Shown here: positions 8,398 through 61,134 of the stretch, piece after piece
Layout: each line of letters begins with the position of its first letter
Numbering within the stretch: the stretch's first letter is position 1
Origin: an uncultured Gammaproteobacteria bacterium
GTDB lineage: Bacteria > Patescibacteriota > Microgenomatia > Daviesbacterales > UBA10151
Reading direction: 5' to 3'
Assembly (NCBI GenBank): GCA_964636275.1
Contig: CAZWRN010000003.1
Coordinates: 4,423-68,422, forward strand
Length of the DNA stretch: 64,000 nt
The notes under the pieces: model-generated
What the model saw: only the letters and a program-made list of their open reading frames with translations
What the model was told of the DNA's origin: nothing
Databases searched by the model: none
Position numbers and translations under genes: made by a program

Positions 8398-8454
8398 ATA
8401 GTAAATAGAAATTAGTGATTAGTGATTAGTTTAAATTTTTTTATTCTCTAATCT

Positions 8455-9201
8455 CTATTTACTAATCTCTTTATATAGCCTATTCGCTTCGGCTAATTCT
8501 TCTGGTGTATTCACCCCAAACCATTCTGATTTATTTTGCAGCAGATAAATATTAATCTTTTTCCCCTGATCTTTAGCCATATTCATCAGCTCTGTCAGAT
8601 AATACTCCCCTTTGGTTGAATTTTTTTCAATCTTATCAATATGTTCTTTCAACCAGCTGTAATCAAATAAATAGACTCCGCAATTGACCTCTGAACTAGT
8701 CAGATTGAGCTGAGAATAATCCGAGTATTCTAAAAGCTGGTCAAACTCTCCATTTGCCTTTCGAAAAACTTTGCCCATCCGCTCTTTCTCAGGATCAACC
8801 AGAGTCATCATTGTAATGACTGATTTGGAATCTTCATGCGAAGATATCAACTCACGAAGTGTTGAAGGTGAATAAAAAGCTGAATCATCGCCTCCCACCA
8901 CCAATATCGTTTGGTAGTTGTTTGTCATTTTCTGAATAGCACTTCTGACAGCATCGCCTGTGCCCAATGGTTCAAGTTGCTGGGCAAAATTTACATTAAA
9001 GATCGGTGCGATAGCATCCACAACCTCTTGGGATTTATATGAAACAACAGTAAAAATGTCTGATATCCCTAAAGCCTGAATATTACGAATAGTATGAAAA
9101 ATCATCGGTTCTCCACCAATCTCGTGGAGGACTTTAGGTTTCTCAGATTTCATTCTGGTTCCTTTTCCACCAGCCATTATTACTGCTGCAATCTTTTGCA
9201 T
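8455..9201 (-). CDS. sugar-1-phosphate nucleotidyltransferase resembling only the N-terminal (uridylyltransferase) domain of GlmU
   Basis: MAGGKGTRM and QLEPLGTGDAV motifs plus the EYYLTE signature of the GlmU pyrophosphorylase domain. At 248 aa there is no LbH acetyltransferase domain. Confidence 0.65.
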   Translation of the reverse strand: MQKIAAVIMAGGKGTRMKSEKPKVLHEIGGEPMIFHTIRNIQALGISDIFTVVSYKSQEVVDAIAPIFNVNFAQQLEPLGTGDAVRSAIQKMTNNYQTILVVGGDDSAFYSPSTLRELISSHEDSKSVITMMTLVDPEKERMGKVFRKANGEFDQLLEYSDYSQLNLTSSEVNCGVYLFDYSWLKEHIDKIEKNSTKGEYYLTELMNMAKDQGKKINIYLLQNKSEWFGVNTPEELAEANRLYKEISK

Positions 9202-14989: not shown

Positions 14990-16198
14990 ATGCCTCTTTT
15001 TATATATAACGCGAGAGATCTTGGTGGGGTTGATCACAAAGGAACTATCGAAACCACTGACTCTTCAGGAGTTGCTCGCATTCTCAGCAAAAAAGGGCTA
15101 ATTGTCACCTCAATTAAAGAAAAAAAAGAAACAAATCTAAAATTTTTTGAGAAATACTTCAATAAAGTTGCTTTCGAAGATGTGGTGGTTGCTACAAGAC
15201 AACTAGCCACCATGATTGAATCTGGATTGGTTTTGTCTGAGGCAATGGATATATTAGTAGAGCAACAATCAAATAAAAAATTAAAAACTGCACTTGAAGA
15301 GATATCACGTGACATAAAAAATGGTCTCGATTTGACATCGGCGATAAAAAAACATCCAGATATTTTTCCTCCTTTGTACGGAAATTTGATCAAATCCGCC
15401 GAACAAGCTGGAAACCTAGATGTAGTTTTAGTTCAAATGGCCGATAATATGGAGAAAGAACGAGAATTTCGTAGCAAAGTTCGTGGTGCAATGATATATC
15501 CACTGATTATTTTTTTAATGATGGGTGCTGTTATGGCCATTATGGTATTTTTCGTAATACCTCGTCTAACCTCATTGTATTCACAGTCAAATATTGATTT
15601 ACCCCTACCAACTAAAATACTCATTGGAATCTCTGATTTCGCCCTTAGCTTTTGGTGGGTTATGGTCTTGATGGTAATTGCAATCGCATTTGGATTAAAC
15701 AGATTATTATCAAATCCAGAAGGAAAATATATATTTGATGCCTTTTTACTTAAAGTCCCAGTGGTGGGTAAAATTATCAGAGGCACTGTTCTGACCAACT
15801 TTACTCGCACTTTTGGACAACTATCTTCAGCCGGTGTACCTATTTTAGAAGCTTTACAGACAATCAAGGATATTACCTCAAACAGAGTTTACAAAAAAGC
15901 GCTAGAGGATACATATTCAGGAGTAGAAAGAGGTTTAACTTTTTCCGCTCAGCTGGATGCGGTAGGAGTTTTTCCTAAAATTATTTCTCAAATGTTTAAA
16001 GTCGGTGAAGAAACTGGAAAAATTGATAAAGTAGCTTTTAAGTTAGCTGACTATTTTGAATCTGAGGTCGATAATATGCTTAAAAATCTAACAGTCTTAA
16101 TCGAACCAATTGTTTTAGTTGTTTTGGGTGTGGGAGTTGGATTTATCGTCCTCTCAGTCATATTACCAATTTACAAGCTCACGACCTCATTTTCTTAA
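14990..16198 (+). CDS. pilC: type IV pilus inner-membrane platform protein PilC (GspF family)
   Basis: Two GspF repeats and three TM segments; 402 aa. Confidence 0.85.
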   Translation: MPLFIYNARDLGGVDHKGTIETTDSSGVARILSKKGLIVTSIKEKKETNLKFFEKYFNKVAFEDVVVATRQLATMIESGLVLSEAMDILVEQQSNKKLKTALEEISRDIKNGLDLTSAIKKHPDIFPPLYGNLIKSAEQAGNLDVVLVQMADNMEKEREFRSKVRGAMIYPLIIFLMMGAVMAIMVFFVIPRLTSLYSQSNIDLPLPTKILIGISDFALSFWWVMVLMVIAIAFGLNRLLSNPEGKYIFDAFLLKVPVVGKIIRGTVLTNFTRTFGQLSSAGVPILEALQTIKDITSNRVYKKALEDTYSGVERGLTFSAQLDAVGVFPKIISQMFKVGEETGKIDKVAFKLADYFESEVDNMLKNLTVLIEPIVLVVLGVGVGFIVLSVILPIYKLTTSFS

Positions 16199-27087: not shown

Positions 27088-27089
27088 AT

Positions 27090-27190
27090 TGGTTAATTTC
27101 TAATTTCTAATTTCAAATTTCTAATGTCTAAATAAAAAAAATCCTAATTATTAGAAATTAGGTCAATTAGAGCACTTAGAAATTTCTATC
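27090..27190 (-). repeat. 5'-UTR octamer-repeat element (TTAGAAAT/TTTGAAAT tandem) upstream of rpsP
   Basis: In mRNA sense the sequence reads ...ATTAGAAATTTGAAATTAGAAATTAGAAATTAACCAAT-ATG. It belongs to a recurring family (see 38490, 41160, 42555, 58930). Confidence 0.6.
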
Positions 27191-27196
27191 CTCGTA

Positions 27197-27226
27197 AGTA
27201 TACCTAATTTGAGGCTAACTAGTCAA
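27197..27226 (-). promoter_or_regulatory. sigma70-like promoter TTGACT-N18-TATACT for the rpsP operon
   Basis: Hexamers read on the minus strand: agtcaa at 27221-27226 and agtata at 27197-27202. Confidence 0.4.
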
Positions 27227-27248: not shown

Positions 27249-27920
27249 TTATGGGTTTAATGTCTTGAGAGCATCTGATGCAGCAGCTTCTTCAGCAATT
27301 TGTTTGGAAGAACCTTCCCCTTCTCCGATCTGTTCACCTTGCAAAAAAACTCCTACTTTAAATTCTTTGGCGTGATCCGGTCCTACAGTCGCCAAAATCT
27401 TGTATTTTGGTGATTGCTTGGTTTTGGTTTGAGCCAACTCCTGTAGTGAGGATTTTGCATCTTTTGGTGGCCCACTCTTTAGCTCCTCTTCAAATAAAGG
27501 CAACAGTGAATCGAAAACAAACTCTTTGGCTTTTTCCAATCCTTCAACTAAAAATATTGCCCCAAGAAATGCTTCAAATGTATTGGCTAAAAGCTGAGTA
27601 TTCTCACGTCCTCCACCCATCTCCTCTCCTTTTGAAAGCCGCAAATGCTCGCCTAATCCCAGTATCTGAGCAGCTTTGGCAAGTGAAGTCGTTTTTACAA
27701 TATATGAACGTAAATTAGTCAGATCACCTTCTGCATCATGGGGACGAAGATGAAAAAGTTCGGTTGCAACAATTAAAGATAAAACTGAATCACCTAGAAA
27801 TTCCAACCTCTCATTGGACTCTTTGACTTCAGGAGATTCGTTTAAAAAAGAACGGTGAGTAAACGCCGTCAAAAATAATGGATTTGAATCAATCTTTTGT
27901 ATTAAATCTATCTTATTCAT
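27249..27920 (-). CDS. rnc: ribonuclease III
   Basis: RNase III signature ERLEFLGDS and a C-terminal dsRBD. Confidence 0.9.
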   Translation of the reverse strand: MNKIDLIQKIDSNPLFLTAFTHRSFLNESPEVKESNERLEFLGDSVLSLIVATELFHLRPHDAEGDLTNLRSYIVKTTSLAKAAQILGLGEHLRLSKGEEMGGGRENTQLLANTFEAFLGAIFLVEGLEKAKEFVFDSLLPLFEEELKSGPPKDAKSSLQELAQTKTKQSPKYKILATVGPDHAKEFKVGVFLQGEQIGEGEGSSKQIAEEAAASDALKTLNP

Positions 27921-33463: not shown

Positions 33464-33534
33464 CAGAGGTATTCTACCAAAAAAATCCCGCCGTATCAGG
33501 CGGGATTTTAAATAATTTCTGCTGAATTTTTCAG

Positions 33535-33741
33535 CTATTTTTTAGCGCAGATTTTACATTCAGATTTATGAGTCATCAGTACATACACACCTGAAGCGCC
33601 AACTAAAAGATATACAATACTCTCCAAACCAGGCATTCCACCCAGCAACATATTTACTAAATTGTAGCCCAAAGCAGTCAGACCCCAGTTGATAGCACCA
33701 ACTGCAGTTAAAAGGAAGGCAACCATATGCAGCATTTTCAT
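33535..33741 (-). CDS. DUF378-family small membrane protein
   Basis: LLTAVGAINWGL ... LVGASGVY two-TM pattern. A strong AAGGAGGTGA Shine-Dalgarno sequence lies 7 nt upstream. Confidence 0.7.
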   Translation of the reverse strand: MKMLHMVAFLLTAVGAINWGLTALGYNLVNMLLGGMPGLESIVYLLVGASGVYVLMTHKSECKICAKK

Positions 33742-33832
33742 TACTCATCACCTCCTTATTCAACTATAGTTCGGCCCTCTAAAACAAGTCAATAGCAGGC
33801 CCCCTTCCCCCTACCAAATCCCACAAAATACT

Positions 33833-33859
33833 AGCTACTAGATACCAGCTACTAGATAC
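33833..33859 (+). promoter_or_regulatory. tandem direct repeat AGCTACTAGATAC x2 in the divergent region upstream of the small Cys ORF
   Basis: Exact 13-mer repeat separated by 1 nt. Confidence 0.3.
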
Positions 33860-33873
33860 TCTATACTTCACTC

Positions 33874-34062
33874 ATGTGTTACAACTGCGGATGCCATATG
33901 CCAGAAGACGATATGGGACTTGGCTCGGCCGGTAAAGACCCTAAAGGTAAATCCATAACCGAAGAAACTTTCAAAGCAGCAGCTGAATCTCAGGGAATGA
34001 CCGTTAAAGAAGCAAAAGAAGAAACTTTAAAATTACTTAAAAAAGAGCTTGGTTATAAATAA
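33874..34062 (+). CDS. small Cys-motif protein (MCYNCGCH..., 62 aa)
   Basis: N-terminal CxxCxC, then a charged helical tail. No Shine-Dalgarno sequence, so coding status is uncertain. Confidence 0.3.
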   Translation: MCYNCGCHMPEDDMGLGSAGKDPKGKSITEETFKAAAESQGMTVKEAKEETLKLLKKELGYK

Positions 34063-34083
34063 TATTTCAAACCCTCGCCTGTT

Positions 34084-38100: not shown

Positions 38101-38489
38101 ACTGCCGACTGCACATCTGATTTAGCTTTATCAGCATCATATCCAGATTCAAATTCGATTTGAACTACAGATGCAGATTCACGAGATGTTGAAGTTACCG
38201 TCTTTACTCCATCTACACCTCTCACTGCATCCTCTACCGGTACAGTGATCAGTGATTCAATATCAGCTGGATTTGCTCCCGGTAATACAGTGGAAATAAT
38301 AACAATCGGTATCTTAATTTCTGGATTGAGGGTTCGCGGTAGAGCAAAGTAGGCCTGGGTACCAAAAGCAATAACACCCAAGACGATTAATACCAAAAAT
38401 CGGAGGTTGGTTAGATAACTGGCAACCCACCCAGCTAGCAACCTTGGATCAAATTTGAGTTTGCTTAAATACGTTGATGCAGTATCCAT
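35166..38489 (-). CDS. RND-superfamily efflux transporter (AcrB/HAE-like, 12 TM)
   Basis: 1107 aa, the typical 2 x (1 + 5 TM) topology, and large periplasmic loops. Confidence 0.9.
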   Translation of the reverse strand: MDTASTYLSKLKFDPRLLAGWVASYLTNLRFLVLIVLGVIAFGTQAYFALPRTLNPEIKIPIVIISTVLPGANPADIESLITVPVEDAVRGVDGVKTVTSTSRESASVVQIEFESGYDADKAKSDVQSAVDAVGDLPEDALDPNVQKLDFENQPIWTFSLAGAKDRGSLIRFSRDLQKELEDLASIDNVEITGLDEQEVQIVVKPTAITTYGVNPQVLMGAIKSSISSYPAGNVKTDNSIFSLTIDPAVSSIDQLRETKVNLDGQVVSLVEIAEIREISKPDQTESFLLHDHEVSSAVTFSVYRVSGVNFDVANKEAEEKVKEKLAHSGNGFQVFTIVNTAEQVDESFDHLQRDITIVITLVFIVLLLFLGIRQAFVSMLSIPLTFLITFVVMQFTGIALSFLATFSLLLSLGLLVDDAIVVISAMTAYYRSGKFTPLQTGLLVWKDFWVAILTTTITTVWAFIPLLLSTGIIGEFIKPIPIIVSATLIASIFVALFIILPLMIFLLKPQIPFRVVVLTRVLLLLGIVAGFYFLIPKGTLLVPQLIVLVAFVLIVYLVRDALLGALTKGFLRSPGAKARLSQVMDNGLISFHGIERSYNKLIHRILVSKKARRNTIIMVVIFSLFSYALVPLGLVKSEFFPGSDENTIYVSVELPSGTNIQTAKQEALGLLERFKSTPAMETVTLELGRGYGADFGGPSGSGANSFLYSVALYEERDQTSAEIAQHLRNNFADYTKGTLSVQEISGGPPAGADLQIKLFGPDLKTLDQYANSIQDYLSQQAGVNNINKSIKPGTSKLTFVPDRAKLAENNITVDQLGFWLRLYASGFEADELKFSGDQDLTEDVTIRLGSGTQTVEDITTLVIPTQTGGTVHLSALGKLELATNPTLITREDGKRTISVSAGVQEGYVLADINTKLEEYANSLNLPTGYGWATGGVNEENQESVNSILRAMILSFLLIIITMVLQFKSFRRALIVMLVIPLSISGVFIIFAMAQIPLSFPALIGILALFGIVVKNSILVVDKILINQESGMEFSESVADAAASRLEPIALTSVCTIAGLIPITISDPLWRGLGGAIIAGLTFSGTIMLFFIPVVYYLIFAPKAPARK

Positions 38490-38618
38490 ATGTTTAAAAA
38501 ATTCGAAATCCTAACTTCTAAATTCGAAACAATATCTAAATTCAAAATTAAAAACCTTTTGTCTTGATTTATTATTTCTAATTTTTCGGATTTCGTGATT
38601 CTAATTTCGAATTTATAC
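38490..38618 (-). repeat. intercistronic octamer-repeat element (TTCGAAAT/TTAGAAAT/TTTGAATT) between the MFP and RND genes
   Basis: In mRNA sense it ends ...TTTCGAATTTAGAAGTTAGGATTTCGAATTTTTTAAAC-ATG. Confidence 0.6.
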
Positions 38619-40079
38619 TTAAGGTTTTACTTGTACTTGATCTCCTTCAACCACAGTTCGAGATAAAATCACTTCATCATTGGCTCCGATCCCATCGGTT
38701 ACTGCTACAAAACGACCCTGTACTTGTCCCAACTGGATTTTTCTAGATTTAGCTTTACCTTCACTAACAATATAAATCACGGACTCATCCTGAGTCTGAA
38801 AAATAGCATCAAGTGGGATAAATGGCACCACTGAGTTTGTATCTGGAGCACCAACTGGAATATCAATTTGAACAAATGATTTATCAGTAAAAAGCTCTTT
38901 ATATTCATCACCCAATACATATAACACTGAATACATTTGGCCGTTTGTGGCTTCAGAGGAAACATAGTATGGAGCCAAATCCAAAGTCTTTTCACCAATA
39001 TGAATAGTGGATTTTTCAAATTTCGAAATATTTTTAGCTGTTGATGCAGGCACCAAGGCATTTAAAACAATATCATCAGTGGTTTGATTTAAAGTAGCTA
39101 AGACGGTTCCAGGATTTACCGATTCTCCTACTCGAACATGAATTCGCTCAATAGTAGCGGCAAAAGGAGCCGCCGGATACATTTGAGCTTCAGTAATTTG
39201 CGACGCTAAGAGAGACAGATTGGAGATTTGTCTATTTGCCTCTAAAGATTTTTCTTGGATATCTAGATTTTTTAAAGTAATTTCCCTTCCCAAATCAGAC
39301 AATTGAGCTGGTGGTCGATCAGAAGCTGATTGATATTCAGCTTGACGAATTCCCTGTTTCAACTGATTGATAGCACCTAAAAATTGAGCTTTTTGACCAT
39401 TTAAACTAGCCTGAGCGGAACCAGTTGATTGCGAAATCTGTGCATCCAGAGAAGCTAACAAAGACTCATTTAAATCCAGCAAAGACCGAGATTCTTCTAA
39501 AGACCTGTTGGCAATATCACGAAGCTGATCAGCATTAGCATCGGTTCTTTCAGCAACTTCTCTTTGTTTTGAGATTAGATCTTTCTGAGTATCATATGTT
39601 TGATTGGAAAGATTATTTTGTGTCTGAGCAATTTGTCTGGCCACTGACAAAGCGTTTCCACCTTGGTAATTTGAGGCTAAACCGATCAGATTTTGACCTT
39701 TGCTGACAACATCTCCTTCAATTACATTGATATATGAAACAATACCAGGCATCTGGGCTACTACTTTAATCACTCCACTTTTTTCAACCTGAGCCTGTGT
39801 AGAGATTTTTGGTGAAGAACCTATTTTGAAAGTTTGAACAGATTTAACAGTCGCCTGTTTTGGTTGCTCTGTAGGTTTGGCTTTAAAAACAGTACTTCCT
39901 AACACAATCAAAGCTAATAAAATGATAAGTGATAAAAGAAAACTAACAAATGGACGCCTGGAAATAAATTTTGAAATTCTTTGAACACTTTTCTTACCCA
40001 AATAACCAATTCTGGAAAAAAAAGTTTTTACTTTAAGTAAGGATTGATTCATTGATAATTGTTTGTTTGAATTTGCCAT
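38619..40079 (-). CDS. periplasmic adaptor / membrane fusion protein (HlyD-like) of the RND pump
   Basis: N-terminal TM segment, biotin-lipoyl-like segments, and a long coiled-coil. Confidence 0.8.
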   Translation of the reverse strand: MANSNKQLSMNQSLLKVKTFFSRIGYLGKKSVQRISKFISRRPFVSFLLSLIILLALIVLGSTVFKAKPTEQPKQATVKSVQTFKIGSSPKISTQAQVEKSGVIKVVAQMPGIVSYINVIEGDVVSKGQNLIGLASNYQGGNALSVARQIAQTQNNLSNQTYDTQKDLISKQREVAERTDANADQLRDIANRSLEESRSLLDLNESLLASLDAQISQSTGSAQASLNGQKAQFLGAINQLKQGIRQAEYQSASDRPPAQLSDLGREITLKNLDIQEKSLEANRQISNLSLLASQITEAQMYPAAPFAATIERIHVRVGESVNPGTVLATLNQTTDDIVLNALVPASTAKNISKFEKSTIHIGEKTLDLAPYYVSSEATNGQMYSVLYVLGDEYKELFTDKSFVQIDIPVGAPDTNSVVPFIPLDAIFQTQDESVIYIVSEGKAKSRKIQLGQVQGRFVAVTDGIGANDEVILSRTVVEGDQVQVKP

Positions 40080-40089
40080 ATTTTGAAAA

Positions 40090-40116
40090 TTGTATAGAAC
40101 GACAGACTTTATACAA
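40090..40116. promoter_or_regulatory. inverted repeat TTGTATA-N13-TATACAA in the divergent MFP / atpB control region
   Basis: Perfect 7-bp arms at 40090-40096 and 40110-40116. Confidence 0.3.
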
Positions 40117-40240
40117 TATTTTGTACCACGTCAAGATAGAAGAGCCAGTATATATTATTATAGGTCCAAAGTCAATCTCAGTTGTCTTCATTTACGGATC
40201 TATTGCGCCTCAGACTCATTTTTACTACAATTACCGCGTT

Positions 40241-41155
40241 ATGGACGTCCATGCTACAAAAACAAATATTGATCACAATGTACCCAGTGATCTCTCAGAA
40301 CAAATAATTCAAGAAGAACATACTATTGAAAACAATCAACATGCAGCTTCTACTGAAGGTCATCCGACAGGAACTACCGAACATGCTGTCGAAGGAGGCC
40401 ATGGTGAAGGAGGCTCTTCACATATCGTTTTAGCTCCTGAAACATTGGGATATCTTGGACCTTTGCCAGTTACAAACACTTTACTTGTATCATGGATCGT
40501 AATGGCTATTTTGATCGCTTTAAGTATTGCTGCCACCAGAAAAACAGCCTTAGTCCCTGTTTCCCGGCTTCAAGGGATGTTTGAAATAGTGATTGATGCT
40601 GTTTATACCTTAGCCAAAGATTTAGCAGCCGATAAGGCCAAAGTTTTCTTTCCTATTGCACTGACTTTCTTTCTATTCATTTTTACAGCCAATTTATTAG
40701 GGCTTTTTCCAGGATTTGCCACCATTGGATTCAACCGAGTTGAAGAAGGTCATACCGTCTGGATTCCACTTCTGCGTTCTATGGGATCAGATCTAAATAT
40801 GACTTTAGGTCTAGCTTTAGTATCAGCTGGACTCACACACTACTACGCAGTTAAATACCTTGGTGTTGGTGGCTATCTCAAAAAATGGTTTTCTCTCAAT
40901 CCAATAATGCTTTTTGTGGGAGTTTTAGAGCTAGTTTCCGAAGTTACAAAGGTAGTCTCGCTTTCTTTCAGACTTTTTGGTAACATATTCGCCGGAGAGG
41001 TAGTATTAGCCACCATCTCAGGATTACTGGCCTTTATTGCTCCTCTACCGTTTTATTTTCTGGAATTAATTGTTGCATTTGTTCAGGCAGCTGTGTTTAT
41101 GATGCTAACACTAGTATTTATGGCTTTACTGTCTGAAAAACACGAAGCACACTAG
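40241..41155 (+). CDS. atpB: F0F1 ATP synthase subunit a
   Basis: Five TM helices; C-terminus with a conserved Arg/helix-5 pattern. Start trimmed from the spurious 40052 ORF extension. Confidence 0.8.
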   Translation: MDVHATKTNIDHNVPSDLSEQIIQEEHTIENNQHAASTEGHPTGTTEHAVEGGHGEGGSSHIVLAPETLGYLGPLPVTNTLLVSWIVMAILIALSIAATRKTALVPVSRLQGMFEIVIDAVYTLAKDLAADKAKVFFPIALTFFLFIFTANLLGLFPGFATIGFNRVEEGHTVWIPLLRSMGSDLNMTLGLALVSAGLTHYYAVKYLGVGGYLKKWFSLNPIMLFVGVLELVSEVTKVVSLSFRLFGNIFAGEVVLATISGLLAFIAPLPFYFLELIVAFVQAAVFMMLTLVFMALLSEKHEAH

Positions 41156-41190
41156 TAAATAAGCACGAAGCACTAATTTCGAAGCACGAA
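41137..41190 (+). repeat. direct repeats (A)AGCACGAAGCAC x3 spanning the atpB stop codon
   Basis: aaacacgaagcacactag / taagcacgaagcactaa / tcgaagcacgaaataa. Confidence 0.5.
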
Positions 41191-41299
41191 ATAAATTCGA
41201 AATCAAAAAAATTAAATTTAAAACTTTTAATTTTATATTTTGAATTTGTTTCGAATTTCGAGATTCGAATTTCGAATTTATAAAGAAAGGAGTTAATAA
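41160..41299 (+). repeat. intercistronic octamer-repeat element upstream of atpE
   Basis: ...TTTTGAATTTGTTTCGAATTTCGAGATTCGAATTTCGAATTTATAAAGAAAGGAG...ATG. Confidence 0.6.
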
Positions 41300-41500
41300 A
41301 TGGAACTTAATGCTTCATTTACTATTGCTATTGGTGGTATTGCACCAGCTTTGGCAATCGGTTTAATTGGTATGAAAGCTATGGACGCCATCGGACGCAA
41401 TCCTGATGCGCAGTCTAAAGTTCTGCCAGCGATGCTTTTGGGCATGGCTTTTGCAGAAGCTATTGCGATTTACGCTTTAGTTATCGCTTTCACCATGTAA
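41300..41500 (+). CDS. atpE: F0F1 ATP synthase subunit c
   Basis: 66-aa hairpin proteolipid with the conserved carboxylate in FAEAIAIYALV. Confidence 0.9.
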   Translation: MELNASFTIAIGGIAPALAIGLIGMKAMDAIGRNPDAQSKVLPAMLLGMAFAEAIAIYALVIAFTM

Positions 41501-41590
41501 TTCGCTACACAAAAATGGTCATTCTGGTGAGTAGTAGCGGCTCCAGATGTAAATCTGAAATCCAGGATGGCTTAGTTTCAAAAATTTAAC

Positions 41591-42079
41591 GTGGATAAAT
41601 TTATTAGTGATTTTGGGATTCAGCCCATTCTACTTCTAGCACAGATCGTCAATTTTGCGATCTTACTTTTCTTGCTCAAAAAGTTTCTTTATGGCCCAAT
41701 CATTAAAGTATTAGACAAAAGACGTGACACTATTGAGGAAAGTCTCAAAAACGCTGAAGAAATCGAACTAAAACTTGCAAAAACTGAGGAAGAATACCAA
41801 AAAAGAATTGATAAAGCATCTAAAGAATCTCGCGATATGATTGAAGAAACATCCAAAGCCACTCAGCACATGATGGCTGATGCCAAAGCTCAGGCAACTC
41901 TGGAAATGCAGGATATTTTAAAAAAGGGTCAAGAGTCTATTCAAATGGAAAGACAAAAAATGCAACAAGAGATGCGTTCTGAACTCACTCAATTAGTTAT
42001 CAATACACTCGAACAAGTCACTGGTAAAGTAGTATCGAAAAAAGATCAGATCGATATTATTGAAAAAGCAGTTAAATAA
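41591..42079 (+). CDS. atpF: F0F1 ATP synthase subunit b (GTG start)
   Basis: N-terminal TM segment followed by a long charged helix. Confidence 0.75.
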   Translation: MDKFISDFGIQPILLLAQIVNFAILLFLLKKFLYGPIIKVLDKRRDTIEESLKNAEEIELKLAKTEEEYQKRIDKASKESRDMIEETSKATQHMMADAKAQATLEMQDILKKGQESIQMERQKMQQEMRSELTQLVINTLEQVTGKVVSKKDQIDIIEKAVK

Positions 42080-42084
42080 GTGGC

Positions 42085-42161
42085 AAGTCGCCAGAGTCAA
42101 GTGACAAGGATTTTTTTAGTCACCCTAGACTCTTGACTCTAGTCACTTGAAACTAAATCTT
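42085..42161 (+). promoter_or_regulatory. structured intercistronic element: AGAGTCAAG(TGAC) can pair with either CTTGACTCT or GTCACTTGA, and the element ends CACTTGAAACTAAATCTT-ATG
   Basis: 9-bp complementarity 42093-42101 / 42132-42140, or alternatively 42097-42105 / 42142-42150. A near-identical element flanks the four-helix-bundle gene. Confidence 0.5.
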
Positions 42162-42554
42162 ATGAAAAAAAATAAAAAATTAGACAAAATCATCACTCAG
42201 GCCGTCCAGGCTTCTATCAAAAATGGAGCTATTGACCAGACCAAAGTAGCCCAATTTACAAAAAACTTTAAATCTTTCTCTCTCGAAGATGCTGTCTATA
42301 GTCTCAAAAAATACCAAAAAGGGCTGAAAAATTTTATCAGCCAACACACTATGACTATTTTTGCAGCTACTGAACTACCTAAAGAAACTTTAACCAAGAT
42401 TAAAAATTCATACAATTCTAATTCGAAATTAGAAGTTAGAAATTTGAAATTTCATTTAGACTCTTCCCTTTTGGCTGGGTTTAAGTTTAAAATTGGCGAT
42501 GAAGTATATGACAGCTCTCTAAGGAGATCTCTAGAAAAGCTAAAGATCCAATAG
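42162..42554 (+). CDS. atpH: F0F1 ATP synthase subunit delta (OSCP), short form
   Basis: Position between atpF and atpA, helical; 130 aa from the ATG at 42162. Confidence 0.55.
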   Translation: MKKNKKLDKIITQAVQASIKNGAIDQTKVAQFTKNFKSFSLEDAVYSLKKYQKGLKNFISQHTMTIFAATELPKETLTKIKNSYNSNSKLEVRNLKFHLDSSLLAGFKFKIGDEVYDSSLRRSLEKLKIQ

Positions 42555-42667
42555 CTGTCAAAATTCTGATAACTAATTTCTAAAATCTAAACAATTAAAA
42601 TTTTAAAAGTTTAGGTATTTGGATTTATTTAGAAATTAGAAATTCGGATTTAGAAATTTATAAATAT
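42555..42667 (+). repeat. intercistronic octamer-repeat element upstream of atpA
   Basis: ...TTTAGAAATTAGAAATTCGGATTTAGAAATTTATAAATAT-ATG. Confidence 0.6.
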
Positions 42668-44155
42668 ATGGCAAATATTATAGAAGATATTGAAAAAGAT
42701 ATTAAAAACCTGAAGCTAAAAGCTTCCAAGCAAAACGTGGGTACTGTCACTGAAGTTGGTGATGGTATCGCCCGTATTGAAGGACTTTCACAGGTCCAGG
42801 CTTCTGAATTACTAGACTTTGGCAAAGGAATTTTTGGTTTAGCCCTCAATTTAGAAGAATACAATGTTGGTGCTGTTATCTTTGGTGATTACACCCAGGT
42901 AAAAGAAGGTCAGCAAGTCACCACAACCGGAAGAATTTTGGAAGTTCCAGTTGGTGATGAGCTGATTGGCCGAGTTGTTGACCCGCTTGGTCAGCCTCTT
43001 GATGGCAAAGGTCCTATTAAAACCAAAAAAATGTATCCAGTTGAAAAAATTGCTCCTGGTGTGATTACCCGAAAATCAGTCACTGTACCTCTCCAAACTG
43101 GTATTAAAGCAATTGACGGCATGATTCCAGTCGGACGAGGCCAGCGAGAACTGATCATTGGGGATAGAAATACCGGTAAAACAACTATTGCTGTAGATAC
43201 TATCATCAATCAGAAAGATGTGATCTGTATTTATGTGGCAATTGGTCAAAAAGTCTCCAAAATTGCTCAAATCGTAGCTAAACTAGAAGAAACTGGTGCA
43301 ATGAAACATACCGTTGTAGTCCTAGCATCTGCTTCAGATCCAGCACCTTTGCAATTTTTGGCTCCTTACTCTGGTACTTCAATGGGCGAATACTTCATGG
43401 ATCAAGGCCAAGATGCTTTGATTATTTATGACGATTTATCCAAACACGCCAATGCCTACAGACAGATGTCTCTGCTTCTCAGACGCCCTTCCGGACGTGA
43501 AGCTTACCCAGGTGACGTTTTTTACCTGCACTCTCGACTTTTGGAAAGATCAGCTCGACTAAATGAAGATTATGGCGGTGGTTCACTCACAGCTTTGCCA
43601 GTGATTGAAACCCAAGCTGGTGATATTTCAGCTTATATCCCCACCAATGTGATCTCCATTACCGATGGTCAGATCTTTTTAGAGCCGGATCTCTTTTTTG
43701 CCGGCGTCAGACCAGCTATTAGTGTCGGTCTGTCAGTTTCTCGTGTCGGTGGATCAGCTCAAACCAAAGCGATGAAGTCTGTAGCTGGTAAATTAAAGCT
43801 GGAACTGGCTCAGTATCGTTCGTTGCAAGCTTTTGCTCAGTTTTCATCTGATCTTGATCCGCAAACCAGAGCTCAGCTCGAACGAGGAAAAAGAATGTCC
43901 GAGCTCCTCAAACAACCAGCTTATTCCCCTATGCCAATGGAAGAGCAAGTAGTTGTCTTCTGGGCTGCTACCAATGGCTATTTGGACAATATCCCAGTTG
44001 AAAAAGTTCGCGATTTTGAAGTCCGACTTCTCCAAGACATGAAAGCCAGATACAAAAAAGTCATTTCTGAGATTGCAGAAAAAAAGGTTCTGGATGAAAA
44101 ACTAACTAAGGAATTGGAGAAAATCCTTAAAGACTTCACCAAGTCCTTCAAATAA
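42668..44155 (+). CDS. atpA: F0F1 ATP synthase subunit alpha
   Basis: Walker A GDRNTGKT; 495 aa. Confidence 0.95.
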
Positions 44156-44159
44156 ACTC

Positions 44160-45062
44160 ATGCCTAATACCAGAGAACTCAGACGACGGATCAGATCTGT
44201 CAAAAATACCGCTCAGATCACCAAAGCGATGCAAATGGTCGCTGCTACCAAGATGCGCAAAGCCCAAAACCAAGCTATGGCCGGTCGACCTTACAATTTG
44301 ACACTTAATGAAGCCATGACTCTTCTATTACCCAAACTTAAAGACAACAACCATCCACTTCTCAAAGAGCAAACAAAAGGCAATTCAGCAGTGTTACTCC
44401 TTTCAACTGACAAAGCTCTTTGTGGTTCTTTGAATACCAATTTATTTAGAGCGACTCTCAATTTTATGAAAGATCAAAAAAATAATGTTTTTTACACTCT
44501 TGGTAAAAAAGGTCGACAGTTTTGCGTCAGGTCTGGCTATGATCTAGCTGCAGATTTTGAAAATTCGGACTTAGTCACCTTTAGAACAGCTTCACAAATT
44601 GCTAGACTCGTCACCAAGAGCTTTTTGTCCGGTGAAATAAAAGAGCTTTATATTGTCTACCCGGATTTTGTCTCAGCTCTCAGACAGGAGCCCAAAATCG
44701 TTCGTATTTTACCGGTCGATTTTCAAAACTTAGTTCAAACGCTTACTCCAGAGTTAGCTAACAAAAGTCGTCAGTCGTCAGTCGTCAGTCATCAGCAAAA
44801 CAACTCCGAGTTTCTGTTTGAACCCTCCATTGATGAACTACTGGATTTCATCTTAAACCACTTTGTTCAGGTCAAAATATTCCAGGCTATGATGGAAACC
44901 AAAGCCTCTGAACACTCAGCTAGGATGATCGCCATGCAAAATGCGACAGATAATGCAAAGGAGCTTGTATCTGACCTCACTCTTGCGTATAATCAGACAC
45001 GACAGGCTGCAATTACCAGTGAATTGTTAGAAATAACATCAGCCCAAGCAGCGTTAGAATAG
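44160..45062 (+). CDS. atpG: F0F1 ATP synthase subunit gamma
   Basis: N-terminal RIRSVKNTAQITKAMQMVAATKMRKAQ and a C-terminal helix. Confidence 0.9.
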   Translation: MPNTRELRRRIRSVKNTAQITKAMQMVAATKMRKAQNQAMAGRPYNLTLNEAMTLLLPKLKDNNHPLLKEQTKGNSAVLLLSTDKALCGSLNTNLFRATLNFMKDQKNNVFYTLGKKGRQFCVRSGYDLAADFENSDLVTFRTASQIARLVTKSFLSGEIKELYIVYPDFVSALRQEPKIVRILPVDFQNLVQTLTPELANKSRQSSVVSHQQNNSEFLFEPSIDELLDFILNHFVQVKIFQAMMETKASEHSARMIAMQNATDNAKELVSDLTLAYNQTRQAAITSELLEITSAQAALE

Positions 45063-45098
45063 AGTCAAGTCGCAAGGATCAAGAGTCAAGGATAAGGG

Positions 45099-46854
<1,756 letters not shown>

Positions 46855-58129: not shown

Positions 58130-58468
58130 AGTCTTATAGTTATTTACTTCAGGATACTACAAGTTAGAATTGTACACCCTTTGTAAGCTTTTGTCTAGTC
58201 TATGTCTGGTTTATGTCTAAAAAATAGTTTGTAAAAAAACTTCAGCTTATTCTCAGCTAATATCTTTATTATCAAAATGGTCAAACTATTAAATCCTAAA
58301 ACAAATAACCTCGAAGAGTCAGCTTGTACTTCCTCACTTTTTTTGGGGAGCCGCTAGTTGGCTTTCTTTTTGACTGTAAAAATATTATACACCTCTTATG
58401 CAAGTCCCTGCTTTAGCCTCAAAAGATAAAGATTGAATTGCAACTCCAAATTTATTACACTACACTCC

Positions 58469-58906
58469 ATGGCTGAACTAATTCCGTCAGGAAGCAAGGT
58501 TTCCTTACATTTAAAAATTGTTACACCAGAGTCTCAAGTTCGGGATGAAATGGTTGATCAAGTCAACGTTGCGACCACTCAAGGAGAGATTGGTATTCTT
58601 CCCCATCATGCTGATTTGATCTCAAAAATTGTTCCGGGAGAACTCAAAATCAAAAAAGGCTCTAAAGTCGAATATTTTGCCACAGGTGACGGTTTTTTGC
58701 AGGTGACAAATAATGTTTTGACAATCATGACTGATCTAGCTGAATCCGCTGCCTCTATTGACGAGCGGGCTGTTGAACAGGCGAAAAAACGCGCCGAAGA
58801 AGCTTTGGAACAAAAACTTGGCGATGAAGAATACGCTGAAACACTGGCTATTTTGGAAAAATCTCTAGCTCAGCTCAAAGTTAAGCGACGCCACCGCAAT
58901 ATTTAG
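58469..58906 (+). CDS. atpC: F0F1 ATP synthase subunit epsilon, about 11.6 kb from the rest of the atp operon
   Basis: TTQGEIGILPHHADLI ... DERAVEQAKKRAEEAL ... AQLKV; start trimmed to MAELIPS. Confidence 0.85.
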   Translation: MAELIPSGSKVSLHLKIVTPESQVRDEMVDQVNVATTQGEIGILPHHADLISKIVPGELKIKKGSKVEYFATGDGFLQVTNNVLTIMTDLAESAASIDERAVEQAKKRAEEALEQKLGDEEYAETLAILEKSLAQLKVKRRHRNI

Positions 58907-58929
58907 CTTCTGATCCGTTGTAGATTCAT

Positions 58930-59075
58930 AGTATTCAGGGTATTATGAGTTTAAATTCGAATATCAAAATCCGAAATACGAAACAAATTCTAAATTCAAA
59001 TAGTAAAAAGCATTTTGAATTTCTTATTTGGAATTTAAAGATTATTTCGATTTTAGTACTTCGGATTTCGAATTT
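58930..59075 (+). repeat. octamer-repeat element upstream of the first GT2 gene
   Basis: ...AAATTCGAATATCAAAATCCGAAATACGAAAC...TTTTGAATTTC...CTTCGGATTTCGAATTT-ATG. Confidence 0.6.
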
Positions 59076-61054: not shown

Positions 61055-61134
61055 TGTCAAATACTACCAGTGCCCAATGTCAAATTCCCAGTTTCCTATT
61101 TCAGTGGGCATTCAGCATTAGACATTAAATCTTT

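Follow-up and report, generated by a model that had tools for sequence, protein, structure and literature searches.

The 64,000 nucleotides studied here, taken from contig CAZWRN010000003.1 and called the window in what follows, contain five AT-rich elements made of short tandem units, each lying just upstream of a gene: rpsP, the gene of an RND pump, atpE, atpA, and the gene of a family 2 glycosyltransferase (GT2). These five elements are one local family, with units TTTCGAA and TTTAGAA, of heptanucleotide simple-sequence-repeat hairpins, and they belong to a repeat class that is known but poorly understood. We hold this class assignment, together with the evolutionary behaviour described below, with good confidence. 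The elements are real, and more general than the initial annotation of the window had seen; on present evidence they are not a new class of regulatory element, and, judging from related genomes, neither a conserved regulatory site nor a fixed enhancer is supported.

The product of atpA places the window in the Patescibacteria: the nearest sequences come from metagenome-assembled genomes (MAGs) of Candidatus Daviesbacteria, with 76-77% amino acid identity, and the host is, by this protein, a Daviesbacteria-like Patescibacterium. Relatives were gathered by a protein homologue search followed by contig look-ups, whereas an exact-match look-up of AtpA gave nothing and two scans of public collections gave none closer than 77%. 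Labels such as L010 or L164 designate loci from other public genomes or contigs that were compared with the window.

Five elements in transcribed spacers

The elements, and the signals that adjoin them, are the following.

27088-27182, minus strand: element in the 5' untranslated region (UTR) of rpsP; TTAGAAA/TTTGAAA-type heptamer arrays, imperfect hairpin
27197-27226, minus strand: sigma-70-type promoter of rpsP (TTGACT, 18 nt, TATACT), immediately 5' of the element
38490-38618, minus strand: intercistronic element between the genes of a membrane fusion protein (MFP) and of the RND pump; core 38499-38614, AAATTCGAA...TTCGAATTT; inverted repeat I3
41156-41282, plus strand: intercistronic element between atpB and atpE; AAGCACG units (41161-41190) grading into TTCGAAA; 3' arm of TTTCGAA x4.4 (41249-41279)
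41283-41299, plus strand: Shine-Dalgarno block of atpE, AAGAAAGGAGTTAATAA, with GGAG at 41289-41292; outside the variable element
42555-42667, plus strand: intercistronic element between atpH and atpA; TTAGAAA/TTCGGAT type
58918-58946, plus strand: promoter-like site of GT2 (TTGTAG, 17 nt, TATTAT), just 5' of the element; a consensus match only
58948-59075, plus strand: 5' UTR element of GT2; core 58953-59075, AAATTCGAA...TTCGAATTT; inverted repeat I1, with 49-nt arms

The initial annotation had named the genes correctly: ribosomal protein S16, the AcrB-type RND pump, the HlyD-type MFP, ATP synthase subunit c and GT2 are identified by Pfam, and AtpA by its homologues.

All five elements are transcribed spacers, three of them intercistronic and two of them 5' UTRs behind promoters. 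The rpsP promoter lies immediately 5' of its element, which is therefore transcribed as a leader; both promoter hexamers are unchanged in L172-L177, although the nucleotide identity of these species is no higher than about 78%. The intercistronic copies begin a few nucleotides past the stop codon of the preceding gene and leave 8-22 nt free in front of the ATG: the MFP-RND copy, for example, starts 4 nt past the MFP stop and ends 9 nt short of the RND ATG. Taken together, the elements end 0-22 nt 5' of a start codon. The last TTAGAAAT unit of the rpsP element (27096-27103) ends 8 nt before the rpsP ATG (27087-27085), and the last base of the GT2 element directly precedes its ATG (59076).

It had been proposed that the copies lying inside operons (MFP-RND, atpB-atpE and atpH-atpA) are not simply promoters, and consensus scans over 38300-42800 agree: within these three elements there is no sense-strand sigma-70-type promoter (hexamers 16-18 nt apart), promoter-like sites in the region being fewer than in shuffles, and no terminator-like site (a G+C-rich stem with a T-run after it), the stems being AU-rich. 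By consensus, then, these elements are neither promoters nor terminators. A known RNA family was rejected too: Rfam 15 has nothing at the five loci, at gathering thresholds or at E <= 1, and its matches in the window are a tRNA-Tyr and two sub-threshold ones elsewhere.

The window is poor in canonical translation signals. A Shine-Dalgarno-like tetramer is present at 9 of its 64 genes, and the site is missing at four of the five genes downstream of TTCGAAA-type elements. A TATAAT-like box ends 4-12 nt 5' of the start codon in 14 of the 64 genes, which suggests leaderless mRNAs for these. The seven convergent junctions of the window all have spacers of 0-10 nt or overlap, which leaves no room for terminators, and none of them carries an array.

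Clustering, period and folding

The tracts had been described as tandem 8-mers of the form TT[C/A/T]GAA[A/T]T. Counted on both strands, matches to this pattern indeed form clusters at the five loci, in 27096-27183, 38500-38613, 41176-41278, 42576-42657 and 58954-59074, and there is a sixth, small one within the coding sequence of atpH, in 42414-42450. The six tight clusters account for 36 of the 62 matches in the window. Over the whole window, this count is barely above chance (49 +/- 6.7 in shuffles). At each of the five loci, by comparison, there are 4-8 matches where 0.3-0.85 are expected from 1000 dinucleotide-preserving shuffles of the same locus (6 against 0.29 for rpsP, 7 against 0.67 for MFP-RND, 8 against 0.85 for atpB-atpE, 4 against 0.33 for atpH-atpA, and 6 against 0.62 for GT2), and the observed number is reached in 0 or 1 of the 1000 shuffles. 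What stands out is how the 8-mer clusters, not how often it occurs overall.

The period of these clusters is 7, and the octamer has to be abandoned. Self-identity at lag 7 is 0.52-0.54 at all five loci, where shuffles give 0.33 +/- 0.04, and nothing distinguishes lag 8. Tandem Repeats Finder (TRF) reports the arrays TAATTTC x5.4 (27094-27131, in the rpsP element), TTTCGAA x4.4 and TTAGAAA x4.3. The window holds five arrays of period 7 and none of periods 5, 6 or 8-11; in the first 80 atpA-centred loci, taken from many phyla (1.43 Mb), there are 18 arrays of period 7 and at most 6 of any other period. Across all loci, 63 of the 103 period-7 arrays are intergenic, though only about 12% of the sequence is. 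The perfect palindrome AATTTCGAAATT, said to be formed by many copies, has no exact occurrence in the window and five matches with one mismatch.

What the initial annotation overlooked is that the elements are laid out as inverted repeats. The 5' half of each consists of TTCGAAA-type units and the 3' half of the complementary TTTCGAA/TTTAGAA units, so that the elements are imperfect palindromes of 95-130 nt. In the predicted folds the mRNA, and either strand of the DNA, can form a long mismatched AU-rich stem-loop. The predicted RNA folding energies are -16.6 kcal/mol for rpsP (z = -2.5), -19.3 for RND (z = -1.2), -33.7 for atpE (z = -6.1), -21.4 for atpA (z = -3.6) and -26.5 for GT2 (z = -2.9), the atpB-atpE hairpin being the best of the five.

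Some copies share more than a unit. The upstream block that had been pointed out, TTTTGAATTT, ends 48, 52 and 53 nt before the ATG of RND, atpE and GT2 respectively, and the near-identical endings close to the ATG are also there: GGATTTCGAATTT ends 9 nt (RND) and 0 nt (GT2) before it, and GATTTAGAAATTT 8 nt before it (atpA). The landmarks AAATTCGAA...TTTTGAATTT...TTCGAATTT are common to the RND, atpE and GT2 copies, the outer two being equal to the repeat unit and its complement. These three copies are 63-74% identical to each other, versus about 50% in shuffled and reversed controls, and they look like diverged copies of one element of about 90-125 nt; across the element copies, pairwise identity is 56-74%. 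The hexamer TTCGAA recurs 2-5 times per element at three loci and is absent from the rpsP and atpA copies, which have TTAGAA/TTTGAA units.

Comparison with related genomes

The loci compared with the window fall at several distances. L082, L083, L170, L171 and L178 are contigs of the same strain; L172 has flanks essentially identical to the window; L179 has 94% nucleotide identity in atpA; L164-L169, L173-L177 and L081 are other species, with 72-83% nucleotide identity.

Consider first the rpsP leader. The flanks of L172 follow the window with essentially no difference for about 1.5 kb, but its leader, some 100 nt from the -10 box to the ATG, is unrelated. In L171, the final 35 nt in front of the ATG match. 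A TTCGAAA-type variant of the leader is found in L173-L177, and L173 differs from L174 by a 6-nt indel within the array.

At the MFP-RND junction, the relatives have spacers of 67-71 nt with unrelated TTAACTA/TGATTCA-type units. The atpB-atpE spacer is identical in L082 and L083, has TTAACTA-type units in L164, L166, L167 and L169, and CTAGACT-type units in L081: every genome examined has a short-period hairpin at this junction, with units of three families. Downstream of it, the block AAGAAAGGAGT(T/A)(A)ATAAATG of atpE is kept in all relatives, while the sequence upstream of the block is replaced. The RND and atpE copies of TTCGAAA type are specific to the window lineage and, by this comparison, the TTCGAAA family has replaced other families at both junctions there. 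The GT2 element is identical in L178, whose contig begins inside the 5' terminus of the element.

The junctions around atpH are equally varied. Between atpF and atpH there are three states: the hairpin of the window, an xxxCGCT-type hairpin (L166, L167), and no spacer (L164, L169). Between atpH and atpA, the element is 96.5% identical in L164/L165, a 152-nt variant is found in L166-L168, and L081 matches this variant as far as its contig reaches; L179 has an unrelated 82-nt cassette, and L169 has no spacer, with a gap of 4 nt between the two genes.

The 96.5% identity with L164 could be taken for the precise mobility of a cassette between species. We rejected this interpretation, since the identity continues into the coding flanks: the whole is a homologous-recombination tract of about 300 nt.

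42455-42760, plus strand: recombination tract, compared with L164 9790-10095; 95-97% identical inside flanks that are 67-83% identical; carries the atpA element

This tract looks like a short recombination import between species, and its left edge lies at a heptamer array of the atpH gene, described below. We have also toned down the idea of rapid replacement among close relatives: the nucleotide identity of L164, L166 and L169 to the window is no more than 72-83%, and the truly close ones are L172 and L179 only. With this proviso, the comparisons argue that the cassettes are labile, dispensable in their sequence, and moved by homologous recombination.

The elements also act as assembly-breaking repeats. 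Short-read assemblies of the same strain break in them or at their edges (L170 1-2, L171 1-35, L178 1-120); the rpsP ATG is the beginning of one of these contigs, and TTCGAATATC, in the GT2 element, that of another.

The same architecture with other units

Other intergenic spacers of the window share this architecture with different units, a fact that had also escaped notice: nearly every longer co-directional spacer is such a hairpin, with another unit. The following features were found outside the five loci.

8398-8466, minus strand: hairpin before a Mur ligase gene, units ATTAGTG/CACTAAT; inverted repeat I11, 87% complementary; z = -5.7; TRF array ATTAGTG x2.9; ends about 2 nt before the ATG
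42078-42156, plus strand: hairpin between atpF and atpH, units GAGTCAA/CTAGACT; inverted repeat I7; z = -3.9
61055-61134: spacer hairpin of the same architecture, CATTAGA units
42420-42452, plus strand: TTAGAAA-type array within the atpH coding sequence
44764-44796: heptamer array within the atpG coding sequence
45063-45486, plus strand: inverted short-period arrays GAGTCAAG/CTAGACTC (45063-45098 and 45455-45486) flanking a PF05635 open reading frame (ORF), between atpG and atpD
45099-45461, plus strand: the PF05635 ORF, a 23S rRNA intervening sequence (IVS) protein, bAvd-like (Pfam 23S_rRNA_IVP, 1.6e-32), in the loop of the inverted arrays

The atpH and atpG arrays are in frame, inside essential genes. 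The array in atpH has a different unit in almost every lineage (TTAGAAA in L169, ACATTxx in L164, ACGCTxx in L166, L167 and L081, AATTCAx in L179), with the identical substitution repeated in each unit of an array, which indicates concerted change inside a coding region.

The PF05635 insertion between atpG and atpD is also present in L164/L165 and is absent in L166-L169; L166-L168 have instead a 43-nt spacer of ATAATCA type. PF05635 ORFs occur in or near the atp operons of L137, L133, L118, L117 and L031. The seven that were found are all preceded by short tandem repeats, with periods 7-8 (21 nt in L117), and at least three of the seven have an inverted complement 3' of the ORF. These repeats and complements would therefore link the hairpins to IVS-type elements. 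None of the five TTCGAAA elements contains an ORF, and the arrangement with a PF05635 ORF in the loop is seen only at 45063-45486.

Outside close relatives, start-adjacent arrays of TTAGAAA or TTTCGAA type are found in the Patescibacteria-like loci L010, L093, L106 and L136. Inverted heptamer pairs occur in L040 (an acidobacterial MAG), L075 (an uncultured alphaproteobacterial MAG) and in other loci of the candidate phyla radiation (CPR); in L070 (Bradyrhizobium) there is a heptamer array of which one arm was detected.

A possible role and its rivals

Going by the comparative patterns and by published work, the arrays would arise and turn over through slippage-type expansion, contraction and homogenisation of 7-nt units, and whole cassettes would pass between lineages by homologous recombination anchored in conserved flanks. 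The TTCGAAA family would have taken over several junctions of the window lineage. At the RNA level, the elements might work as leader hairpins whose sequence is indifferent. The window encodes an enzyme that could act on them.

27249-27920, minus strand: rnc, RNase III (Pfam Ribonucleas_3_3, 3.6e-34; also Ribonuclease_3 and dsrm), adjoining the rpsP promoter and element on their upstream side

The gene order L32, NusB, ACP, rnc, S16, KH-domain protein, TrmD is kept in L173-L177. RNase III, which is specific for double strands, would be able to cleave the leader hairpins, and structure near the 5' end may shield the downstream cistron from 5'-to-3' decay. The outcome would be a tuning of expression for cistrons that have neither a Shine-Dalgarno site nor a leaderless start, a tuning evolvable rather than fixed because repeat number and unit change rapidly. 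If the hairpins are indeed control points for RNase III or RNase J, they would help to explain how operon stoichiometry is set with minimal RNases and initiation signals. We draw the RNA-level part from the precedents of the Haemophilus hmw leader, the Coxiella IVS and the RNases of CPR bacteria, all detailed in the next sections, and a role in RNA processing or stability is proposed only tentatively, as something we find somewhat doubtful. Judged jointly over class, evolution and RNA role, the explanation has our preference, with modest confidence.

Several observations weigh against it. Some relatives have no spacer at the junctions in question (L169 at atpH-atpA, L164 and L169 at atpF-atpH), and any function would therefore be dispensable. 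The landmarks common to the RND, atpE and GT2 copies resemble one copied element more than independent products of slippage, and the spread of the TTCGAAA family within the genome is unexplained by the slippage account. In 2.5 Mb of sequence from many phyla, heptamer arrays occur at convergent junctions approximately in proportion to the available bases, a distribution that fits a neutral mutational origin. The stability of the hairpin is modest at RND, as seen above, and in the rpsP leaders of relatives (z = -1.65 and -1.9). The sense and antisense folds are about equally stable, with no consistent bias, and selection on the RNA rather than on the DNA palindrome is therefore not indicated; and the two diverged lineages that exist per orthologous element are too few to read covariation from. 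The start codon (positions -8 to +12) is more accessible than in shuffled leaders at rpsP and RND only, two loci out of five. Finally, for this organism we infer the RNA-level role entirely by analogy.

Two further candidates did not hold up. For an RNA-specific structure, a consistent sense/antisense folding bias is missing. A preference for start codons over stop codons is not seen in the pooled loci of many phyla, where arrays touch the two ends of co-directional spacers alike and are found at convergent junctions too. An insulator that keeps the start codon unpaired would be a weak candidate, with the gain in accessibility at rpsP and RND only.

On a first rival reading, the elements do nothing. 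They could be mutational or selfish by-products of slippage and template switching that survive where they are harmless, their closeness to start codons being trivial in a compact genome. This reading, unlikely in our judgement but the strongest of the rivals, agrees with the unrelated, absent or fast-changing alleles at the same junctions, with elements that occupy the whole spacer and abut stop codons as closely as start codons, and with arrays that invade the coding sequences of atpH and atpG. The distribution over junction types in many phyla, roughly proportional to available bases, and the lack of a sense-strand folding bias also go in its direction. However, the seven convergent junctions of the window are all free of arrays, with spacers of 0-10 nt, though a hairpin would be harmless there; the atpB-atpE junction retains a short-period hairpin in every genome examined, through three unit families; spacers of 100-150 nt persist in a tightly packed genome of a reduction-prone lineage; and the analogous hmw leader has an experimentally proven function (PMC12721329). 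If the elements are only slippage debris, they remain a warning for gene callers, as ORFs swallow arrays, and for assemblers, whose contigs break at arrays, and they would be sensitive strain markers.

A second rival is mobility. The elements could be non-autonomous mobile elements of about 115-125 nt, comparable to miniature inverted-repeat transposable elements (MITEs) or to the palindromic REPINs, with AAATTCGAA/TTCGAATTT as terminal inverted repeats and mobilised in trans. The termini and the internal TTTTGAATTT stand at fixed distances in RND, atpE and GT2, the identity of 56-74% between copies exceeds the roughly 50% of controls, only the window lineage has the RND and atpE copies, public assemblies are interrupted at the elements (L170, L171, L178), and a TTTCGAA-type hairpin is also present in the distant Patescibacterium L010. 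The earlier suggestion of a small repeat family is fair to this extent, for these three copies, but the resemblance to a MITE is partial. No target-site duplication can be recognised at the ends of the elements, and the copies are diverged rather than near-identical. The previous spacer was replaced and not inserted into, with no remnant of an ancestral TTAACTA-type spacer; the body is made of tandem units, and the AAGCACG units of one array echo the 3' end of atpB. The only cassette shared between species that was examined (atpH-atpA, L164) belongs to the recombination tract of about 300 nt with its coding flanks, and no transposase or RAYT was noticed in the 64-kb window. Orthologous sites hold other cassettes, and the single empty site (atpH-atpA of L169) has diverged flanks. 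We regard this explanation as improbable.

An A/U-rich enhancer lies upstream of atpE in Escherichia coli. The main idea of the initial annotation was of this kind: an enhancer of translation rich in A/U, or a site where ribosomal protein S1 lands, in replacement of the Shine-Dalgarno site. It is attractive in a genome where this site is scarce (9 of 64 genes) and absent from four of the five downstream genes, and where the U-rich 3' arms abut the AUG; the same proposal was made for the TAACTGA repeats and for the heptamers of Nostoc. It nevertheless seems to us slightly less probable still than a mobile element. The U-rich arm is predicted to be base-paired and not single-stranded, the corresponding genes of sister strains and species have units that are unrelated and less rich in A/U (for example GAGTCAA, ACGCTAA, CTAGACT), atpE has its conserved Shine-Dalgarno site downstream of the element, and atpA in L169 has a spacer of 4 nt. 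Nor is there a link to highly expressed genes, as had been expected: hairpins of the same architecture precede atpH, Mur ligase and glycosyltransferase genes, and the IVS-protein ORF. Because L172, with identical flanks, has a wholly different rpsP leader, any enhancer activity would have to be independent of this particular sequence.

More speculatively, the heptamer hairpins could be the ORF-less form of IVS-type insertion cassettes, of which the PF05635 gene in the atp operon would be the ORF-bearing form, and RNase III would excise them from polycistronic mRNAs. We give this conjecture as little credit as the enhancer. Each cut would create a 5' end a few nucleotides ahead of an AUG devoid of a Shine-Dalgarno site, the translation of internal cistrons would then be leaderless-like, as that of many promoter-proximal genes of this CPR genome may be, and cassettes exchanged by recombination would tune expression at the level of strains.

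An array of operators for a dimeric regulator that recognises TTCGAA can be set aside as very improbable: the hexamer is a palindrome, and three loci have it 2-5 times in each element, but it is missing from the rpsP and atpA copies, many units are the non-palindromic TTAGAA/TTTGAA, the claimed 12-mer palindrome AATTTCGAAATT does not occur, three copies lie within operons far from promoters and both 5' UTR copies downstream of one, and orthologous junctions carry unrelated units or no spacer.

Other observations on the window and its relatives

In the atp region, the spacer between atpE and atpF (41501-41590, plus strand; L081 1385-1477) is non-repetitive and conserved from one species to another. 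It holds a possible ORF of 24 codons (MVILVSSSGSRCKSEIQDGLVSKI), in which one difference between species is synonymous, and could be a small protein gene or a conserved RNA. The gene atpC, for the epsilon subunit (58433-58906, plus strand), stands apart from the atp operon, some 11.5 kb downstream of atpD, and the GT2 element follows closely. Unrelated small ORFs stand between atpA and atpG in L164 (11508-11804, 98 aa), L169 (11488-11826, 112 aa) and L179 (2358-2519, 53 aa), with no Pfam match on record; the gap between the two genes is 4 nt in the window.

The long spacer 33464-34083 of the window contains the gene of a DUF378 small membrane protein (minus strand) and a Cys-rich ORF of 54 codons (MCYNCGCHMPEDD...), conserved in L164-L169, with a 14-nt tandem repeat (CTACTAGATACCAG x2.3) upstream and a TATACT box 6 nt 5' of its ATG. 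A weak Leu_leader match (E = 0.027) at 33480-33540 is probably a mere terminator-like hairpin. L169 carries, at 2494-2661 and 15673-15800, a separate GC-rich, MITE-like repeat family with inverted termini of CGTCATTCCCGCGAAAGCGGGAATC type.

Comparison with known systems

Tandem heptameric repeats of cyanobacteria, also called STRR (short tandemly repeated repetitive) sequences, were reportedly treated by Mazel in 1990. The features of heptanucleotide STRRs and long simple-sequence repeats are all present in the window: three or more tandem 7-nt units, an excess of period 7 that is mainly non-coding, and variation between relatives. Among long simple-sequence repeats heptamers are the commonest, and a given junction varies from one close species to the next (Rehm 2015, PMC4692102; bioRxiv 10.1101/2022.06.06.494920); the published explanation of this excess is slippage-type processes. 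As in the window, the heptamers of cyanobacteria and Xanthomonas are over-represented between genes and in some cases are inverted pairs able to form stem-loops, and they occupy the same junction in related species with varying length and sequence. The unit variant TTTTGAA is common to Nostoc and the window; in Nostoc, (TTTTGAA)3 is found near start codons (Pradhan 2022, bioRxiv 10.1101/2022.06.06.494920). Unlike the units of the window, the GGGAATC-type units of Xanthomonas and Nostoc are G-rich, with quadruplex potential, and belong to large genomes with ample intergenic space; no connection has been described between them and a genome with few Shine-Dalgarno sites and many leaderless genes.

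The TAACTGA repeats are close in position. They lie a few nucleotides upstream of start codons, where few ribosome-binding sites occur, in marine Beggiatoaceae, cyanobacteria and Bacteroidetes (PMC4679880), and the roles proposed for them involve S1, Csp, CsrA or leaderless-like translation (MacGregor 2015, PMC4679880). Both systems have short heptamer arrays near start codons, before ribosomal-protein genes and inside ORFs, show no functional pattern among downstream genes, and have attracted similar speculative roles; the start-proximal array at genes with no canonical ribosome-binding site is found here too, at four of the five genes. The unit in forward orientation is not: those of the window are TTTCGAA/TTTAGAA, and complementary arms make orientation uninformative. 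The TAACTGA arrays are mostly single direct ones, in one orientation, whereas those of the window are inverted pairs that form hairpins, and unit and phylum differ. The Beggiatoaceae genome has one dominant unit; in the window several unit families coexist and replace one another.

The claim that the element had not been described holds only for this unit in this phylum, and our literature searches found no description of such elements in CPR bacteria. It does not hold for heptamers abutting start codons, which are published (PMC4679880; bioRxiv 10.1101/2022.06.06.494920; PMC12721329).

Mobile palindromes such as MITEs, REPINs or ERIC sequences resemble the elements in being imperfect palindromes of about 100-130 nt, dispersed in transcribed spacers and present or absent between relatives. 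The elements differ from them by the lack of a target-site duplication and of a conserved unique core, by the 56-74% identity between copies, and by their degenerate tandem body.

In the IVS of Coxiella burnetii, the ATG of S23p has heptamers upstream of it, and RNase III has a site at the first of these repeats (PMC4990558). This IVS is like 45063-45486 of the window, with an extended stem around a PF05635 ORF and heptamers just before the ATG, and unlike the five TTCGAAA elements: the IVS bears an ORF and lies in rRNA, while these are ORF-less and lie in mRNAs.

The nearest functional precedent is the hmw 5' UTR of Haemophilus influenzae, where (ATCTTTC)n forms a long hairpin that RNase III cleaves, with a rise in expression, and where changes in repeat number depend on this cleavage (PMC12721329). 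CPR bacteria keep RNase III, RNase J and PNPase as core RNases (PMC12641178). Both systems have transcribed 7-nt tandem units in a long imperfect hairpin upstream of a start codon, a repeat number that varies between strains, and RNase III in the genome; the leader hairpin is found at the loci of the window, with weak significance for the RND copy. In hmw, the repeats are in the left arm only and pair with a G-rich right arm, whereas both arms of the window elements are complementary arrays. The hmw repeats, at least 11 units, belong to a single phase-variable adhesin locus; the window has 3-5 degenerate units per arm, at many housekeeping junctions. In hmw, the cleavage and its effect on expression are proven, while the elements of the window are known from their sequence.

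Start-adjacent heptamers have thus been noticed in several phyla and explained experimentally at one locus only, that of hmw. The window adds heptamer hairpins in a streamlined CPR genome with few Shine-Dalgarno sites and many leaderless-looking genes, and its natural allele swaps, with identical flanks and different leaders, are ready-made experiments.

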